From the UHGV virus genome UHGV-1911926: a stretch of 16,028 bases of DNA; one strand, 5' to 3'. The stretch is from a virus. Made by a program: the position numbers and the translations under genes. Below, in pieces: positions 976 through 16,028 of this stretch. The notes below the pieces were generated by a model. The model did not search any database. It worked only from the letters and a program-made list of their open reading frames with translations, and was not told where the DNA came from. Positions within the stretch are counted from its first letter, which is position 1. The number at the start of each line of letters is the position of its first letter.

Positions 976-1106
976 CGAGATTAAAGTGCATTAGTTCAGA
1001 TGCAAATTGACATTTTGTGGCACAGGGTAGAGCTAGCGTGGTTGTCCGCTTTGTGCCAATAGCGGACATTGCTGGCTCATGGTATGTTAGTTTAAGGAGG
1101 CAGGTT

Positions 1107-2129
1107 ATGCCCTGTATTTCGCTGTGGTATAATAGTTGCGCAATTGATACAAGGGAGCGTTACATCGTGAAAATTGTTTTCGAGGTTAATGGAAAGAAAG
1201 TTCCACTAAAATCTTTAAAATACATAAGCAAAAAAGATCAACTCGAAGTAATGAAAAACTGGTTCTTTGAAAACTTTGAAGATCCGGCAAATGCTTGTCC
1301 GTATGAAAGTAGAGAAGGTGGCTATGCTTACATATATGGCGGGCCGTATGATGCGAGCGAAGAACTACAATCCATCTTCGGTCAATATGTTAAATCTGAG
1401 TATATTGAGGAATTAGTAGATGAATTACAAACACAATGTTTTGACTGGTCTGGAAACTCAAATAATATAGATGATTGGTACGATGATGATATCTACGACG
1501 CTGTAACGTCTTCCGGTAATCCGTATTTAAAATTCATTGATAATATCGATAAAATAAAAAAACTTGCAAAAGATAAAACTGAACAACAGCAAAAAAACCA
1601 CTTGCTTAGTTTGCTCTACACGAATGTTATTACAGCTTTGGAAACGCTTTATGTTGAGCTATTCATTAATTCTATAGAGAAAGATGATGTCTACATAGCC
1701 AATTGTATAGAAAAAGGTAAGACTGAATTTAAAGTAAGCAAAGATATTGCTGCGTTGCCTTTCAAGGGTGAACCCATCGAGAAAATTAGGGGAGAGCTAA
1801 TCAGGTCAATCAAGGAACACTTGATCAGTGCAAGCTGGCATAGCACTAAAAAGGTAATCGACCGCTATGAAGCTACATTCGATATAAAAGTACAAAAAGA
1901 CTGTCCGATAGAAGCTATTGAATTGGCAACCCTCAATCGAAATCACTTAGTGCATCGTGGTGGAAAGGATAAAGAAGGGAACCTCGTAGTGATTACAGAC
2001 CAGGATCTTGAAACGCTGATTGAAAATGCATCGAACCTGGCAATTATGCTCTACAACAGTTTAAATGTAGCAACGAATAAAACCACCATTTTGCAACCAG
2101 ATGACAAACCGTTCATTCATGAATTTTAA
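1107..2129 (+). CDS. Cassette gene A: hypothetical protein with HEPN-like R-x4-H motif (NRNHLVHRGG) in the C-terminal region; putative RNase-type effector
   Basis: Long ORF (track 1017..2129). Preferred start ATG 1107 with AGGAGG at 1095-1100 (6-nt spacing); alternative GTG 1167 with GGGAG at 1153-1157. Strongly AT-rich compared with flanks. The R-x4-H motif matches the HEPN signature described by Anantharaman et al.; the assignment is inference, not a database hit. Confidence 0.6.
   Translation: MPCISLWYNSCAIDTRERYIVKIVFEVNGKKVPLKSLKYISKKDQLEVMKNWFFENFEDPANACPYESREGGYAYIYGGPYDASEELQSIFGQYVKSEYIEELVDELQTQCFDWSGNSNNIDDWYDDDIYDAVTSSGNPYLKFIDNIDKIKKLAKDKTEQQQKNHLLSLLYTNVITALETLYVELFINSIEKDDVYIANCIEKGKTEFKVSKDIAALPFKGEPIEKIRGELIRSIKEHLISASWHSTKKVIDRYEATFDIKVQKDCPIEAIELATLNRNHLVHRGGKDKEGNLVVITDQDLETLIENASNLAIMLYNSLNVATNKTTILQPDDKPFIHEF
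1125..1133 (+). promoter_or_regulatory. Extended -10-like element TGgTATAAT
   Basis: Exact TGnTATAAT match at 1125-1133, just upstream of the alternative GTG start (1167) of the AT-rich cassette; no good -35. Speculative. Confidence 0.25.
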
Positions 2130-2144
2130 TAGCGCAGGTCATAC

Positions 2145-3146
2145 ATGGATATTCGCACACGAAAGACAAAATTTTTAGAGTCGTTAGATTCAACTGAAGT
2201 GATACGCAAAGCAGTAAGTCTCGCTATAGATTGCATTATTGATAATCATAATAGTAATGAAGATACCCCCTTAGTTATTACCAGCTATGATGATCTCTGT
2301 AGAATCCAGGTGCTAAATTATGTACAGGAGTTTTGCGAAGCTGCATTCCCTGATATGGATGAATATTACTTTAGTCCTAACATACTTCGCATCAACGGCA
2401 AGACTAGTGAAGAAGCTTGTATTAACTTAATTAAACTCTTAAGAAGTACAAAAGGCATGCTATTCTGGTCCGATGCCCCATCGTGGTTCGCTAGCCTCCC
2501 CGACGGATTATTCCATGTTGTTAACATTGATCAAAAAATCGTTACTCGCGGCCTTAATAAGAAAAACTCTAAGCCGACAATAATCAATAAAGATTACAGT
2601 GTAGATACACTACTATCAGAGCTATTTTTGAATGGCGCACACATGGAGCAACCCAACGTACACAACGTTTCTGAGGGAAACATGAAGTTCTATGATGAAT
2701 GCCATGCTGGATTAATCAGACCAATACCCGCTCCAATAGGCGCGTCATACGATGAAGAGATCACAATTAATTCTCCAGATTGGCAAAAGCTCGCGTGTGT
2801 AGCTTTACGCCGCTATCAGTCGAAGGAATGTCATGACGGAATGCAATGGGATACAACCGATCATGGTTGGACTGATGTAATCGCGTATCCATTCGTCGAA
2901 GAAATACAATCAATGGATAATAGTGGTTATCGACAATGTTTAGTTGGGCTGGTCACAATAAACAATTCAAATGCAAATTCTCCGTACCTATCTACCGTTT
3001 GGATACATCCATTTTATCGCAGGAGAGGGTTATTAAGTAAGTTATGGCCAAAATTACAAGAGTTATATGGAAGTAACTTCGAAATTGAGCGACCTAATGA
3101 AAATATGAAAGCATTTCTGAAAAGTGCGAAACACGCAGATTACTAA
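2145..3146 (+). CDS. Cassette gene B: hypothetical protein (333 aa), co-oriented 15 bp downstream of gene A; weak GNAT-like segment (WIHPFYRRRGLL) near C-terminus
   Basis: ORF 2145..3146, same AT-rich composition as gene A, operon-like spacing. No confident family assignment; the GNAT resemblance is weak. Confidence 0.6.
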   Translation: MDIRTRKTKFLESLDSTEVIRKAVSLAIDCIIDNHNSNEDTPLVITSYDDLCRIQVLNYVQEFCEAAFPDMDEYYFSPNILRINGKTSEEACINLIKLLRSTKGMLFWSDAPSWFASLPDGLFHVVNIDQKIVTRGLNKKNSKPTIINKDYSVDTLLSELFLNGAHMEQPNVHNVSEGNMKFYDECHAGLIRPIPAPIGASYDEEITINSPDWQKLACVALRRYQSKECHDGMQWDTTDHGWTDVIAYPFVEEIQSMDNSGYRQCLVGLVTINNSNANSPYLSTVWIHPFYRRRGLLSKLWPKLQELYGSNFEIERPNENMKAFLKSAKHADY

Positions 3147-3257
3147 TTTATGAATCAGTCTGTGGAGTTAGGGTTGGTGTCAACAAGTAGGGTAAGAGCC
3201 TCAACGTGATGCTATGCCGACCTGCTCCCTGAGAATTCACACAGAAGGCTGCTAGCA

Positions 3258-3548
3258 ATGTCTGCAGATCGCTCAAAGCGGACTAGAAGGTTAGCTTGCG
3301 TCGGACTTGGCGTATTTAAAGAAGTGCTGGTGGTGACTGGTTGTTGTGTTCCATTTCTACAGAACAAAATCACAGAAACTATACCCAATAGTTATATTGA
3401 ATCAATGATGAGACAGCCTCATATTTATCAGAACTGGTGTACGTCCAATACAGGAGGTTGTCGTGCTGGTTCTCAAATGTGCGCTAGCTATTGCGGCTGT
3501 AATGGCAATTTATTGTCTTGCTGTTGTTCTTATGGATCGCCTTTCTGA
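3258..3548 (+). CDS. Hypothetical small cysteine-rich protein (96 aa; C-terminal ~45 aa carry 11 Cys)
   Basis: ORF with GAAGG at 3244-3249 and ATG 3258. Could be spurious; no family recognised. Confidence 0.3.
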   Translation: MSADRSKRTRRLACVGLGVFKEVLVVTGCCVPFLQNKITETIPNSYIESMMRQPHIYQNWCTSNTGGCRAGSQMCASYCGCNGNLLSCCCSYGSPF

Positions 3549-3606
3549 TTGATTTTATATTGGCGAGGTGACGGGAGTTAAGTAGAATTGCTGCGGGTGC
3601 TTGAGG

Positions 3607-3642
3607 CTATCTGCCTCAGGCATGAACACCAAAGGCAGATAG
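3607..3642 (+). other. Perfect 10-bp inverted repeat (CTATCTGCCT / AGGCAGATAG) with 16-nt loop, upstream of hok
   Basis: Seen directly; no U-tract follows, so a regulatory or mRNA-folding element rather than a terminator. Confidence 0.4.
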
Positions 3643-3763
3643 AGAAAAGCCCCAGTTAATATTACGCGTCCTGCAAGACGCTTAACATTAATCTGAGGCT
3701 CAATCTATGAACGGCAAATCTAGGTTAGCCTCTTACGTGCCGAAAGGCAAGGAGAAGCAGGCT

Positions 3764-3919
3764 ATGAAGCAGCAAAAGGCGATGTTAATCGCCCTGATCG
3801 TCATCTGTTTAACCGTCATAGTGACGGCACTGGTAACGAGGAAAGACCTCTGCGAGGTACGAATCCGAACCGGCCAGACGGAGGTCGCTGTCTTCACAGT
3901 TTACGAACCTGAGGAGTAA
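3764..3919 (+). CDS. hokD: Hok/Gef-family type I toxin (51 aa; MKQQKAMLIALIVICLTVIVTALVTRKDLCEVRIRTGQTEVAVFTVYEPEE), HokD/RelF-like
   Basis: Protein is near-identical to my recollection of E. coli HokD/RelF (single transmembrane helix, conserved C-E-V/R-T-G-Q-T-E-V-A motif). The ORF track shows an in-frame upstream extension from 3707; ATG 3764 is preceded by AAGGAG at 3745-3750. Confidence 0.85.
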   Translation: MKQQKAMLIALIVICLTVIVTALVTRKDLCEVRIRTGQTEVAVFTVYEPEE

Positions 3920-4366: not shown

Positions 4367-5496
4367 GTGCGAGTATTACTTCGACCTGTTCTGGTACCGG
4401 AACTCGGGCTGGTGATCGTTAAGCCGGGCCGTGAATCCATGCCGGTATTCCACAATACCCGGGTACTGGTGGAGCCGGAACCGAAAAGCATGCGTAATCT
4501 GCCGTCCGGGGTTGTTCCTGCCGTTCGCCAGCCGCTAGTGGAAGACAAAACATTGCTGCCGTTTTTCAGTAACGCACGGGTGATTCGTGCTGCTGGTGGT
4601 GCTGGTGCATTGTCTGACTGGCTGTTGCGCCATATTAAATCCTGCCAGTGGCCACACGGCGATTATCATCACAGCGAAACCGTCATTCACCGTTATGGTA
4701 CCGGCGCAATGGTGTTGTGCTGGCACTGCGACAACCAGCTGCGTGACCAGACATCCGAATCACTCGAGCAACTTGCTCATCAAAACCTGTCAGCATGGAT
4801 GATTGACGTCATACTCCATGCAATGAATGGCTCGCAGGAACGGGAATTATCGCTGGCTGAATTATCCTGGTGTGCGGTCCGCAATCAGGTGGCGGACGCG
4901 CTACCGGAAGCGGTATTACGTCGTTCGCTGGGGTTGCGTGCGGAAAAAATCCGCTCAATGTACCGTGAAAGCGACATCGTACCGGGAGAGCAGACCGCCA
5001 CCAGCATACTGAAGCAGCGCACAAAAAATCTTGCGCCGCTGCCTCACGCCCACCAGCAAAACCCGCCACAGGAAGAGNNNNNNNNNNNNNNNNNNNNNNN
5101 NNNNNNNNNNNNNNNNNNNNNNNNNNNNNNNNNNNNNNNNNNNNNNNNNNNNNNNNNNNNNNNGTCAGCATTGCCGTTGATCCTGAGTCTCCGGAATCTT
5201 TCATGAAACGACCTAAACGTCGCCGCTGGGTTAACGAGAAATACACACGCTGGGTGAAGACACAGCCGTGTGCGTGTTGTGGTAAGCCAGCCGACGATCC
5301 CCATCACCTGATTGGTCATGGTCAGGGCGGAATGGGGACAAAATCTCACGATATTTTCACGCTACCGCTGTGTCGGGAGCATCACAACGAGCTTCATGCG
5401 GATCCTCTGGCGTTCGAAGAAAAGCATGGTTCTCAGGTTGATTTAATTTTTCGTTTTCTTGATCACGCCTTTGCAACTGGCGTGCTTGGGTAAAAG
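4367..5496 (+). CDS. DUF968-like (YdfU-like) prophage protein with C-terminal Cys/His cluster (CACCGK...HHLIGH...CREHHNELH); interrupted by an assembly gap
   Basis: GTG 4367 preceded by GGAGG at 4356-4360. Open frame to the N-run; a second open frame resumes right after the gap and runs to 5496. The frame differs across the gap (gap length presumably arbitrary). Family call from memory of Qin ydfU context. Confidence 0.65.
5078..5163. other. Assembly gap (86 N)
   Basis: Run of N in the sequence. Confidence 1.
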
Positions 5497-8369: not shown

Positions 8370-8445
8370 GGCCCTTTAGCTCAGTGGTGAGAGCGAGCGA
8401 CTCATAATCGCCAGGTCGCTGGTTCAAATCCAGCAAGGGCCACCA
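8370..8445 (+). tRNA. tRNA with CAU anticodon (Ile2-lysidine or Met), ileZ-like
   Basis: Manual fold: acceptor GGCCCTT/AAGGGCC, D-arm GCTC..GAGC, anticodon loop CTCATAA, T-arm GCTGG-TTCAAAT-CCAGC, discriminator A, encoded CCA. Confidence 0.8.
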
Positions 8446-8452
8446 TCACATA

Positions 8453-8529
8453 CCGCCATTAGCTCATCAGGAAAGAGCGCCAGCCTTCGAAGCTGGTTGC
8501 GCGGAGTTCGGGTCCCCGAAGGCGGTCCA
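8453..8529 (+). tRNA. tRNA-Arg (UCG anticodon), atypical
   Basis: Manual fold: anticodon stem CCAGC/GCTGG with loop CTTCGAA, D-arm GCTC..GAGC. Acceptor has one A-A mismatch, T-stem one A-C mismatch, T-loop TTCGGGT lacks the usual A58. Encoded CCA. Confidence 0.55.
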
Positions 8530-8542
8530 TTATCTGTATCCT

Positions 8543-8619
8543 GCGTTGTTAGCTCAGCCGGACAGAGCAATTGCCTTCTAAGCAATCGGTCACTGGTTCG
8601 AATCCAGTACAACGCGCCA
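8543..8619 (+). tRNA. tRNA-Arg (UCU anticodon), argO-like
   Basis: Manual fold: acceptor GCGTTGT/ACAACGC, anticodon stem ATTGC/GCAAT with loop CTTCTAA, T-arm ACTGG-TTCGAAT-CCAGT, discriminator G, encoded CCA. Confidence 0.85.
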
Positions 8620-8664: not shown

Positions 8665-8879
8665 CTCACAATTCAGGCGGTTGACTGTTGTCTGGTTTGC
8701 GGGGAGTTTGTTAAAAGAAACTGGCATGGTGAATCCCCCTGTGCGGAGGGGCAATCAGCGAGTAGGTATATGGGATAATCGCGGATTCAGGTGCTGGTAC
8801 TGAATTCACCGGGAGGCACCCGGCACCATGCAATGGCACATAGCGCCACTCTCCAGCCCCTCTCCGGAGGGGCTTTTCT
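8665..8879 (+). repeat. Non-coding module A (CTCACAATTCAG..TTGAC..GCATGGTGAATCCCCCTG.GCGGAGGGGC..-10-like..CACCGGGAGGCACCCGGCACCATG..terminator CCCCTC-TCCG-GAGGGG+CTTTTCT at 8857-8879)
   Basis: Homologous to module B at 9133..9366; conserved hairpins and terminator, no conserved ORF. Confidence 0.5.
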
Positions 8880-9068
8880 GTGCCGGATACATCACAGTTT
8901 CTGGAACCTTAGGTACTACAGTATCAGTCAGGGTGCTATATTTTCAGATGTGATGAAAGCCTGTCAGCAGGCAGGGCGTATCGGAAATGACCCAGTAGAG
9001 AAAACGTTGACTCAGATACCGGTGCTGAGTTACCGGGAAACCGGCATCACATGACCGCTATCCTTCCA

Positions 9069-9132: not shown

Positions 9133-9366
9133 CTCACAATTCAGTAAGTTGACAGTTGCCTGTCAGACTGGGCATTTGTTAAAAAAATTTCGCATGGTGA
9201 ATCCCCCTGAGCGGAGGGGCGACTGGTGACGGTATAATCTCTGATTATCAAAACGAGAATGACGCGGGTTTAGTGGCACCGGGCTGAACTCACCGGGAGG
9301 CACCCGGCACCATGTGCATGATGATACAGATACGCGGCTTTAGCCCCTCTCCGGAGGGGTTTTCTT
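9133..9366 (+). repeat. Non-coding module B, paralog of module A; contains TTGACA (9149-9154), consensus TATAAT (9233-9238) and terminator CCCCTC-TCCG-GAGGGG+TTTTCTT (9344-9366)
   Basis: Alignable by eye to 8665..8879. Confidence 0.5.
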
Positions 9367-9372
9367 GTGGGC

Positions 9373-10300: not shown

Positions 10301-10640
10301 ACGTTGGGGGGCATGGGTGGCAAATAATCACGAGGATGTCACCTGGTCGTCTATTGCTGCAGGATTTAAAGGACTAATCCCTTCAAAAGTAAAATCCCGC
10401 CCGCAATGTTGTGACGATGATGCGATGATCATTTGTGGGTGCATGGCTCGCCTGAAAAAGAACAACAGCGATTTGCACGATTTATTAGTGGATTATTATG
10501 TAGGTGGTATGACGTTTATGGCGCTTGCCCGTAAACATGGGCGTTCTGATTGCTGGGTTGGGCGTTTATTGCAAAAGGCTGAAGGTGTAGTTGATGGCAT
10601 GTTAATGATGTTAGAAATTGAGCTAGAGATGGATCGTTAG
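10301..10640 (+). CDS. Antiterminator Q, QuuD-like, 5'-truncated by the gap
   Basis: Frame is open from the first base after the N-run ([53 protein letters not shown]...); matches my recollection of DLP12 QuuD. The track start at 10317 (GTG) is internal. Confidence 0.65.
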
Positions 10641-10682
10641 AAGACCTCTTATTGAGGGGGTAATTGAATCAGTTTAATGTGT

Positions 10683-10712
10683 GGGGAGTCGATTTATTCT
10701 CCCCATTTTATT
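10683..10712 (+). terminator. Hairpin GGGGAG-loop-CTCCCC followed by ATTTTATTT
   Basis: Seen directly between the Q fragment and the convergent lipoprotein gene. Confidence 0.4.
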
Positions 10713-10724
10713 TAATTAATTTAC

Positions 10725-11171
10725 TTAAGGTTTTAATTCATCAAGACGTTGTTGGATAGTGTTTTTGCTTGCGTTGTCTGTTATAGCCATTTGTTGTACT
10801 TGCCCCATTGCCATTTGAGTTTCCATCCACATATCGGCCCACACTTTTGTATCGTTATTAACTTGAGCGATAGTAAATCTGACTTTTGATACCGGGGTTG
10901 TTGAATAGGCATTGCCGATTAACATTTGTCCAAAAACAGCAGACCCGCCTTCCAGTTCTTTACCACATATAACACTGCTGTTATCAGCGTTGTAAATTAT
11001 CAACCCTCTACTATTGCAGTAATTCACAAGGGCATCTTTGACTTTATCTTTTGTCGTATTTTGATAAACCCCCTCAGGTTTTCCTGATTGAGTTTTTTTT
11101 ATCAATGGTACGGAAGAAGTACAACCTGAAATGATAGTTGCGCTAAGTAATAGTACAGTCATTTTATTCAT
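10725..11171 (-). CDS. Putative lipoprotein (148 aa; signal peptide with lipobox IISGC), AT-rich moron
   Basis: Minus-strand ORF with N-terminal MNKMTVLLLSATIISGC; lower GC than surrounding phage genes. Confidence 0.65.
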   Translation of the reverse strand: MNKMTVLLLSATIISGCTSSVPLIKKTQSGKPEGVYQNTTKDKVKDALVNYCNSRGLIIYNADNSSVICGKELEGGSAVFGQMLIGNAYSTTPVSKVRFTIAQVNNDTKVWADMWMETQMAMGQVQQMAITDNASKNTIQQRLDELKP

Positions 11172-11297
11172 GTTTCTTATCCATTGTTAAGGGCATACCT
11201 ACACAATTATTTTTATTGGAGATGAATAATCAACCGTTTACAATCGTAAAAAATCAAATATGCTGTTAAGAGTGGTTACTTCGCCACACAACTTAAA

Positions 11298-11319
11298 CCC
11301 GCCGCTGAGCGGTTTTTTT
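11298..11319 (+). terminator. Intrinsic terminator (GCCGC-TGA-GCGGT + TTTTTTT), homolog of 6781..6803
   Basis: Seen directly; the downstream ~120 bp is alignable to 6800..6922. Confidence 0.5.
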
Positions 11320-11441
11320 GTACCTGTAAACTTGGTGCAGTACAGTAAACACGCTGGTGGTCGTGAATACTGACCTTTTATCTTGCTGGCTTTTTAGACA
11401 AGAGTTATTGGTATGTCATGTTAACCAGAAGGGAAAAAGAC

Positions 11442-15120: not shown

Positions 15121-15427
15121 AAACCGGCCAAGGATAATCCGCTGAAGATTCGCCGGTGGCTAAAGTGTGCCAAGAGTTCAATTTACGCAATTACTCCTGT
15201 CGATGCTATGTACCGTCTTTGTGAAGTCAATGGATACCTGATTTATTTCTGTGCGCTGTATCGTCGCTGTACTCTTGCATTAATTATGACTGTAGCCTGA
15301 CGGGGAACTCCTTCTGCACAAGTGTGGGGGAATAATCAAAAACGATGCACACCGGGGTTACCGGGTACACATATTTCATCATGCCAGCGAGTCCGGTTCT
15401 GGCACGGAAGAAACCGGACGTTATGAT

Positions 15428-15838
15428 TTAGTGCGGAAATATTTGTGTAGTGTTCTGAATGTTCTCAGTAAAGAGTAATGAATTATCAAAGGTATAGTAA
15501 TACCTTTTGTTTTCGTGGATATTTGTAATCCATCTGAAAACCCCTGCTGTAGCAAGATTTTTCCTGTATTCGTAAAATGATAACTCTCCTGATTTGAATC
15601 CTTTTAAGGTGGCTTCTATAAGGCATTTATTTTTTGAAAATCTTACATTTACAACCTTACCCTGTCCTTTTATTAAAACCGTATTATCGTTTTCAAGAAC
15701 AAGATGAATATTCTCTGTGGCTAAATAGTAAATGTAATGTGAGACATTGTGACGTTTTAGTTCAGAATAAAACCAGTGATAGTTTAAATTATTTCGCACT
15801 TTATCGAATATTTGTTTAAAAATGGCAATCTGAGCCAT
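15428..15838 (-). CDS. Hypothetical protein (136 aa), AT-rich moron convergent with the lysis cassette
   Basis: Minus-strand ORF; start chosen at the second ATG (MAQIAIF...) because GGAAGG lies 7 nt upstream; the track start is 15853. No family recognised. Confidence 0.5.
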
Positions 15839-16028
15839 TGTAGTACCTTCCATGTGATATGAGGGGGGGTAGTCTGCACGATTATCTAAATTGCTTCAAT
15901 CTGGTCTGACCTGTTTTCTGAGCAATTCAGTAATGTCACTCTTTTCTTTGTTTGCTTCAGGCGAAACTCTTTTTTCTGAGCACAGTCTCCGGCGGCAGGC
16001 TTCAATGACCCAGGCTGAGAAATTCCCG

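Follow-up and report, generated by a model that had tools for sequence, protein, structure and literature searches.

The gene considered here most resembles aRES in architecture. By its authors' detection rule, aRES is a PF18870 domain joined to a RES domain; it is a stand-alone gene found in defence islands, and it protects E. coli against diverse phages with growth arrest and NAD+ depletion (Osterman et al., bioRxiv 2026, doi 10.64898/2026.01.28.702374). Two further groups of described proteins bear on the comparison. Anantharaman et al. (2013, PMC3710099) list the Ribo L-PSP-HEPN proteins as catalytically active and as distant relatives of AbiD/AbiF, and DARNA cleaves tRNA anticodon loops (doi 10.64898/2026.02.22.705581). 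The stretch of DNA that was analysed, referred to as the window, comprises 16,028 nucleotides of the virus genome UHGV-1911926. It carries a 2.24-kb mobile cassette (1044..3283, + strand) with two genes, gene A (1167..2129, +; 320 aa, WP_014639476.1) and gene B (2145..3146, +; 333 aa, WP_000354966.1). Gene A has the PF18870 domain of aRES, HEPN/RES N-terminal domain 1 (HEPN/RES-NTD1), ahead of a different toxin-type domain. Pfam scans of the window protein and its homologs matched no RES domain, and gene A is aRES-like in architecture only, not a member of aRES. On balance we favour the view that the locus is a mobile cassette for defence: gene A would be an abortive-infection ribonuclease of the aRES-like, single-protein kind that acts autonomously, and gene B a later-acquired gene of acyltransferase fold.

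An earlier reading of the letters by themselves, called here the sequence-only reading, had started gene A at the ATG at 1107. The GTG at 1167 is the most likely start, since it is the PGAP start, all gene A homologs begin with MK/MN-IVF at this position, and an AAGGGAG Shine-Dalgarno sequence and the GTG are kept in every copy, the 60-nt extension from the ATG being unconserved. The homolog search gave 122 clusters, and 48 homologs of 27-87% identity were aligned. HEPN/RES-NTD1 occupies about residues 1-112 of the protein and a helical HEPN domain about residues 140-308. The AlphaFold2 model, with a predicted local distance difference test score (pLDDT) of 89, has the four-helix up-down bundle of the HEPN fold. 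The R-x4-H motif is R258-N-H-L-V-H263-R264 (codons 1938..1958, +). R258, H263 and R264 of this RNHLVHR motif, as well as W224-H225 and E159, are among the residues invariant in the 48 homologs down to 27% identity. The HEPN-like motif proposed by the sequence-only reading was therefore borne out: with the fold found and the R and H invariant, it withstood the two observations which that reading had itself named against it, an absent fold and variable motif residues. The two peptides quoted there, ATLNRNHLVHRGG and WIHPFYRRRGLLSKL, are both found in the translations of the open reading frames (ORFs). HEPN domains typically act as dimers.

When the homologs were scanned singly, 47 of the 48 matched PF18870 at E <0.01, and several have precomputed PF18870 matches; 23 of the 48 matched PF18735 (RiboL-PSP-HEPN) at E <0.01, with a best E of 1e-9. 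The supposition that gene A lies outside recognised families was thus not upheld, because the family matches the Pfam-defined HEPN_RES_NTD1 and RiboL-PSP-HEPN domains and its architecture parallels that of the published aRES. Other resources added little for either gene: NCBIfam gave no match to gene A or gene B, the PHROGs searches returned only the 'unknown function' families phrog_17908 and phrog_16994, profile searches of both gene families against PDB sequences gave nothing meaningful, and the literature search found no papers for the protein accessions or the PHROG identifiers.

HEPN/RES-NTD1 also occurs in other combinations. In some proteins it follows a PIN_8 nuclease domain, and in Alphaproteobacteria (Mesorhizobium, Bradyrhizobium, Xanthobacter, Methylocystis and others) it is joined to a GIGHNNPP motif and a hydrophobic C-terminal tail rich in Gly and Ala, perhaps a membrane effector. 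The profile search with the N-terminal domain returned only proteins of at most 245 aa and did not retrieve RES fusions. Because the same module is found with HEPN, RES, PIN_8 and hydrophobic tails, we infer that it is a portable regulatory or sensing domain placed before interchangeable toxic effectors. If gene A defends against phages, HEPN/RES-NTD1 would be a portable switch for at least two unrelated suicide effectors, acting by NAD+ depletion in aRES and by RNA cleavage here; the domain itself would then become the object of interest, and the question would be what it senses. A separate observation concerns the C-terminus. A C-terminal Phe is common in A-family proteins (window 2112-2126), and the alphaproteobacterial proteins, which share only the N-terminal domain with the A family and have different effector regions, also end in ...F, ...EF or ...PF.

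The cassette consists of an L-type repeat, a promoter, gene A, gene B, a 3' untranslated region and an R-type repeat. Copies with 83-98% nucleotide identity and unrelated flanks come from Serratia and from numerous metagenome and viral contigs, and the similarity among copies sets in exactly at 1043/1044 and stops at 3220-3284. The left boundary is a 24-bp L-type inverted repeat, GTCCGCTTTGTGCCAATAGCGGAC (1044..1067, +), which forms a hairpin as folded single-stranded DNA (z = -4.8). The right boundary is a 24-bp R-type inverted repeat, GTCTGCAGATCGCTCAAAGCGGAC (3260..3283, +), with a degenerate left arm. At this right junction three different cargos meet an identical backbone inside the R repeat. 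The cassette's own promoter is probably marked by an extended -10 element, TGgTATAAT (1125..1133, +). The form TGnTAyAAT is kept in all copies of the unit, including a variant from which gene A has been deleted and Aeromonas-type copies without the L repeat. A generic sigma-70 and terminator scan did not rise above the shuffled expectation and missed the extended -10, which was seen only by alignment. Genes A and B are probably co-transcribed from this promoter. Two other candidates were rejected. The junction repeats are not intrinsic terminators or boxB-like sites, as they have no T-run, have 10-nt loops and flank cargo of either orientation; and a 96-aa Cys-rich ORF at 3258-3548 was discarded as a gene, being absent from the PGAP annotation and spanning the cassette-backbone junction.

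Repeats of the same two types, 24 bp each, bound cassettes of 1-2 genes elsewhere; in general form they are GTCCGCTntGTGCCAnnAGCGGAC for L and GTCCGCTnnTCGCTCAnAGCGGAC for R. The search patterns were degenerate, with 20 specified bases each. Among the matches listed in IMG/VR, the L pattern had more than 120 exact matches and the R consensus, GTCCGnTnnTCGCTCAnAGCGGAC, likewise more than 120. The 222 IMG/VR loci among those matches held 235 L and 221 R repeats, giving at least 134 L-to-R cassettes, whose median inner length is 1.66 kb. Their R-to-L junctions were mostly 18 or 16 nt, the cassettes being stacked in the order R, 16-18 nt, L. The cassettes analysed in viral contigs, at least 131, typically have 1-2 genes, in either orientation; their 212 ORFs fall into 133 clusters. 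Known defence systems are well represented in this cargo: PADLOC identified PD-T7-1 (3), PD-T7-5 (3), DarT/DarG (2), ThsA (2) and LmuA (2) among the cluster representatives, and also ThsB, PycC, DRT reverse transcriptases, Tmn, NsnA, SAVED-TIR and several PDC candidates, to which Pfam adds HEPN_LA2681, SIR2_2, TIR_2, RelA_SpoT and Macro. Thoeris, Pycsar and Lamassu are among the systems that these cassettes carry.

Inside some arrays there is a 200-aa tyrosine recombinase (WP_023147793-like), of the size of FimB/FimE and made up of the catalytic domain only, which is always co-oriented with the repeats (L168:7091-7693, L171:7001-7603, L172:7001-7603 and L088:6295-6780). Copies from an E. coli prophage slot and from an Enterobacter island share 84% identity. 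Of the 5,426 complete E. coli genomes, 848 have the gene; at the 394 loci examined it was seen in only 11, most arrays lacking it. We conjecture that this protein is the candidate cassette recombinase, a role kept conjectural by its presence at only 11 of the loci. A bolder reading of the locus, which we put forward tentatively, is that the A-B unit belongs to a new integron-like cassette system of enterobacterial prophages and islands. Cassettes would be exchanged inside the repeats, maybe by the 200-aa recombinase, and the system would serve as a platform for shuffling antiphage genes, with gene A as a new single-protein HEPN counterpart of aRES and gene B as a new acyltransferase-type immune component. 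The repeat-bounded organisation is a candidate mechanism for the exchange of content in prophage cargo slots, and the two 24-bp motifs are a simple sequence handle for mining new defence genes in Enterobacterales.

Genes A and B are co-oriented on the same strand and 15 nt apart (end of ORF A, 2129; start of ORF B, 2145), as had been noted from the sequence. Their treatment as a fixed two-gene module did not survive comparison with relatives. The neighbourhood of gene A was surveyed in 80 species-representative genomes with an A relative. Gene A was solitary, with no B relative nearby, in 77 of them, and gene B accompanied it only in two near-identical copies. No conserved partner was found among the immediate neighbours of 60 A relatives, where no Pfam family is common to more than 4 of 103 (the phage integrase); these neighbours include capP, RmrA, AbiEii, LmuA, PD-T7-5, SoFic, methyltransferases and integrases. 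A relatives at 75-76% identity (Aeromonas taiwanensis, Yersinia alsatica) are monocistronic, with an intrinsic terminator after the gene. As judged from these surveys the A family stands alone in the manner of aRES, with no conserved neighbour in the 77 genomes, although the copy in the window is followed by gene B.

Seen from gene B, the pattern is lineage-dependent. Copies of gene B at 73% identity or above have gene A upstream with an identical 15-nt spacer and many unrelated flanks, and one such Aeromonas pair adjoins relaxase, SIR2 and cREC_REC genes. The one exception is a clade at 86% identity (loci L088, L108, L155 and L156), in which the cassette leader 1043-1143 is joined directly to 2066-3220. 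The missing window segment, 1144-2065, runs from just past the promoter to the last ~20 codons of gene A, which is thus cleanly deleted with the promoter and gene B kept. B relatives at 62% identity or less always occur without gene A, in integrative and conjugative elements (ICEs), beside Abi_2 or in chromosomal islands. Taken together, these gene orders show that genes A and B are each autonomous, and that their linkage is real but restricted to a lineage.

Could the two genes nevertheless work as one system in this lineage? In such a two-component system gene B would serve as sensor or co-effector, for instance by acylating aminoacyl-tRNA or a phage or host protein, and defence would need both genes, even though the ancestors of each worked alone. 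Every A-B unit, at B identities from 100% to 73%, retains the 15-nt spacing and the gene order in spite of unrelated flanks, the unit has just one promoter and one pair of boundary repeats, and gene B shows strong conservation, its many invariant polar, aromatic and Cys positions being of an enzyme-like kind. However, the 86%-identity clade has shed gene A while retaining the promoter and gene B, the 75-76% identical A relatives are monocistronic, 77 of the 80 species genomes have no B relative near gene A, and gene B at 62% identity or less never has gene A upstream. We regard a two-component system as unlikely.

Gene B is composed of a family-specific N-terminal alpha/beta domain (about residues 1-175) and a C-terminal GNAT-fold domain (about residues 180-333), which bears out the weak GNAT-like resemblance that had been noticed in its sequence. 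The AlphaFold2 model has a pLDDT of 90. The homologs form 66 clusters, and the alignment is strongly conserved, with 38 invariant columns. Pfam Acetyltransf_1 scored 19.9 bits against a cut-off of 20.7. The GNAT cofactor motif Q/R-x-x-G-x-G/A is only partly kept: R292 is invariant, G295 varies and the last G/A is Leu. The beta4-alpha3 segment 'HPFYRRxG' occupies the place of the acetyl-CoA-binding motif. When 1.8 billion representatives were searched exhaustively with a profile, relatives outside the family appeared only for residues ~180-333, the 175-residue N-domain being confined to the gene B family. These outside relatives are uncharacterised proteins of ~160 aa, the nearest of them phage proteins, and the Pfam matches and context of the stand-alone GNAT relatives gave no clue beyond a location in phage replication modules. 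In one phage contig (L169:3001-3483) a 160-aa relative lies upstream of a terminase, its start overlapping a DUF3987 replication gene at the latter's end, which suggests that the GNAT module of gene B came from the phage early-gene repertoire.

A toxin-antitoxin-like pair has also to be considered, in which gene A would be a HEPN toxin neutralised through acylation by gene B, by analogy with the AMPylation of HepT by MntA (type VII). The genes are a tandem, presumably co-transcribed pair, the slot has relBE in Qin, and gene B left alone after loss of gene A has the expected look of an orphan antitoxin. The obligate co-occurrence of type II and type VII pairs was nevertheless not found here. 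In nearly all genomes gene A occurs without gene B, and among these are close relatives that have a terminator of their own; this argues that gene A is not constitutively toxic and in need of gene B. Members of the B family stand alone in ICEs and chromosomal islands, the GNAT motif of gene B is only partly kept with a variable G295, and aRES, with the same N-terminal domain, works without an antitoxin. The autonomy of each gene speaks against an obligate toxin-antitoxin pair, above all against neutralisation of A by B, and we hold this explanation to be improbable.

The cassette sits in a slot between a DUF977 gene and hok/sok (window 976-3580), the contents of which vary among prophages. Elsewhere the slot holds relBE (K-12), an alpha/beta hydrolase (O157:H7), the epoxyqueuosine reductase QueH (ST131), small hypothetical genes, a 595-aa DUF4209 protein within an L/R cassette, or a three-cassette array that includes the small recombinase. 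The proposal of a toxin-antitoxin or defence hotspot with cargo exchange was right as to exchange, as a discrete mobile cassette is replaced by other cargo in other prophages, but too narrow as to content, as the slot also takes QueH and the alpha/beta hydrolase. Given these varied contents across E. coli prophages, it is a general cargo slot, partly served by repeat-bounded cassettes. It is hardly probable that the unit is a non-defence moron, with gene A an RNA-processing or regulatory nuclease, gene B a metabolic or antibiotic-modifying acetyltransferase and the lysogen benefiting in a way unrelated to phages: QueH and the hydrolase share the slot and cassettes with the same repeats carry NUDIX, LysR, major facilitator superfamily (MFS), APH, adenosine deaminase and other genes, but HEPN/RES-NTD1 is known only ahead of effectors of the toxin type, aRES, which contains it, has demonstrated antiphage activity, defence genes are frequent beside members of the A family, and known defence systems are heavily represented in the cassette class.

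We return to the favoured view, a mobile defence cassette with an autonomous gene A. It draws support from the invariant R-x4-H motif, the Pfam matches of the homologs, the published accounts of Ribo L-PSP-HEPN and aRES, the fusion of the N-terminal domain to other toxin-type modules, the solitary occurrence of gene A, the defence genes beside A relatives, beside the Aeromonas pair and in same-repeat cassettes, and the conserved extended -10 element. Several results count against it. PF18870 scored 22.2 bits (E 1.9e-4) on the window protein, under the gathering score of 27.4, and PF18735 had no match to it at E <=1. Since 23 of the 48 homologs match PF18735 and the window protein does not, membership in that family is transitive, by way of relatives. 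Foldseek with the whole-chain model of gene A returned nothing significant. In PADLOC-DB v2.0.0 the best E for gene A was 0.01, from spurious PglX or PDC-M13A fragments, and gene B had no match. Cargo outside defence is present both in the slot and, as NUDIX, LysR, transporters, APH, adenosine deaminase and others, in the same-repeat cassettes, so defence assigned through guilt by association is only suggestive. An autonomous gene A also leaves unexplained why the 15-nt spacing is strictly kept while gene B diverges to 73% identity; from this strictness gene B may be functionally coupled to gene A in this lineage.

Under the favoured view, the cassette at 1044-3283 would be self-promoted mobile cargo in the variable slot that extends from the replication genes to hok/sok of a Qin/Rac-like lambdoid prophage. 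HEPN/RES-NTD1 would restrain the C-terminal HEPN ribonuclease, or tie it to a cue of infection. Once activated, the HEPN domain would cut cellular RNA, phage RNA or both through R258/H263, and this cleavage would lead to growth arrest before the invading phage finishes its cycle. Gene B would have joined the cassette of gene A in one enterobacterial/Aeromonas lineage, and it would be dispensable for gene A, having either an independent second function or the role of a modulator.

Window 1000-3600 is 100% identical to chromosomes of extraintestinal pathogenic (ExPEC) and avian pathogenic (APEC) E. coli, among them S88, APEC O1, IHE3034 and ATCC 11775, the type strain, and this stretch is present in full in 205 of the 5,426 complete E. 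coli genomes (~4%). At this frequency, and with ExPEC/APEC reference strains among its carriers, the cassette could affect host ranges in phage therapy. The S88 copy is inside a lambdoid prophage whose integration site adjoins ompW, with cI/cro, ydaT, replication and DUF977 genes before the cassette and hokD, a 92-aa gene, DUF968 (ydfU-like), RusA and an antiterminator after it. The equivalent order in K-12 Qin is relB-relE-hokD-rem-ydfU-ydfT, so that the cassette holds the position of relBE, as the sequence-only reading had it. That reading also saw the ydfU-like and Q-type genes downstream, which are annotated past hokD, and a sharp drop in base composition, which was measured: in 400-nt windows the GC content is 0.33-0.41 over ~1200-3400, 0.49-0.60 upstream and 0.52-0.55 downstream, the fall covering ~1100-3500. 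Two of its details were amended. hokD (3764-3919), the next annotated gene 3' of gene B, is not directly adjacent to it, the gap being ~620 nt, and the 92-aa protein after hokD is not rem, as related prophages have rem besides it. The hok/sok type I toxin-antitoxin locus (3595-3919), with sok RNA at 3595-3769 (Rfam sok, 113 bits), borders the cassette on the right, and the hokD-DUF968 block is present in 4,813 of the 5,426 E. coli genomes. Further along the window, a run of masked or ambiguous bases at ~5035-5125 lies inside the DUF968 (ydfU-like) gene, giving X in all frames. Three tRNA genes (Ile, Arg, Arg in the S88 annotation) are situated 3' of a DNA methyltransferase gene (region 8370-8616, 8695-8885, 9163-9372) and are followed by two copies of the STnc100 small RNA (Rfam 136 and 161 bits). 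Two more stretches of low GC content (0.33-0.40) in the late prophage region, 10400-11400 and 15200-16028, may be additional morons.

How, then, does the locus compare with known systems? The L/R-cassettes resemble integron cassettes, including those of sedentary chromosomal integrons as defence biobanks, in having 1-2 genes in ~0.4-7 kb bounded by conserved imperfect palindromes, in forming head-to-tail arrays, and in bearing diverse, antiphage-rich cargo, the same cargo being found in unrelated contexts. Unlike them, they have as boundary elements an L and an R inverted repeat, 24 bp each, 16-18 nt apart with GTCCGCT/AGCGGAC arms. By inspection there are no RYYYAAC/GTTRRRY attC boxes at the L/R junctions, and no IntI integrase was found near the cassettes, just the 200-aa tyrosine recombinase. 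They differ also in cargo of either orientation, in a possible promoter of their own, and in their place in lambdoid/e14-like prophages and enterobacterial islands. In a published study that screened 10,705 phage genomes with IntegronFinder, only 17 clusters of attC sites lacking an integron integrase (CALINs) were reported. In the searchable literature, itself incomplete, no matching description of repeat-bounded or integron-like defence cassettes in prophages was found.

Gene B has in its C-terminal 150 residues the GNAT fold of TacT/AtaT-type toxins and of generic Acetyltransf_1 proteins, and it differs from the TacT/AtaT type by its 175-residue N-domain, its degenerate cofactor motif and the lack of a ribbon-helix-helix (RHH) or Xre antitoxin partner. 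With respect to HepT/MntA of type VII, the partner here has a GNAT fold, not that of a nucleotidyltransferase, and is downstream rather than upstream; gene A has an extra N-terminal domain, and the pair is not obligate. DARNA (PD-T7-3) and Tha (doi 10.64898/2026.02.22.705581; PMC11087260) resemble gene A in combining, in one polypeptide, a HEPN ribonuclease and a non-catalytic regulatory domain, in being borne by prophages or mobile elements and, as we would expect of gene A, in being activated only on infection. They have no sequence relationship to gene A, which gave no PADLOC matches, and DARNA has its HEPN domain at the N-terminus, together with an unrelated partner domain. Ribo L-PSP-HEPN (PF18735; PMC3710099) has in common with gene A the HEPN four-helix fold and an R-x4-H motif predicted to be active, whereas the gene A family bears HEPN/RES-NTD1 and the window protein is under the Pfam threshold. 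The likeness to aRES is in the shared PF18870 domain before a toxin-type enzymatic domain, in working as a stand-alone gene, in location in defence islands and mobile elements of Enterobacterales, and in the expected outcome of growth arrest on infection. The effector of gene A, however, has a HEPN ribonuclease fold, not that of a RES NADase, and a presumably co-transcribed GNAT-like gene lies 3' of it here. The novelty of gene A is the aRES architecture with a HEPN effector, and the cassette system is the more novel lead.

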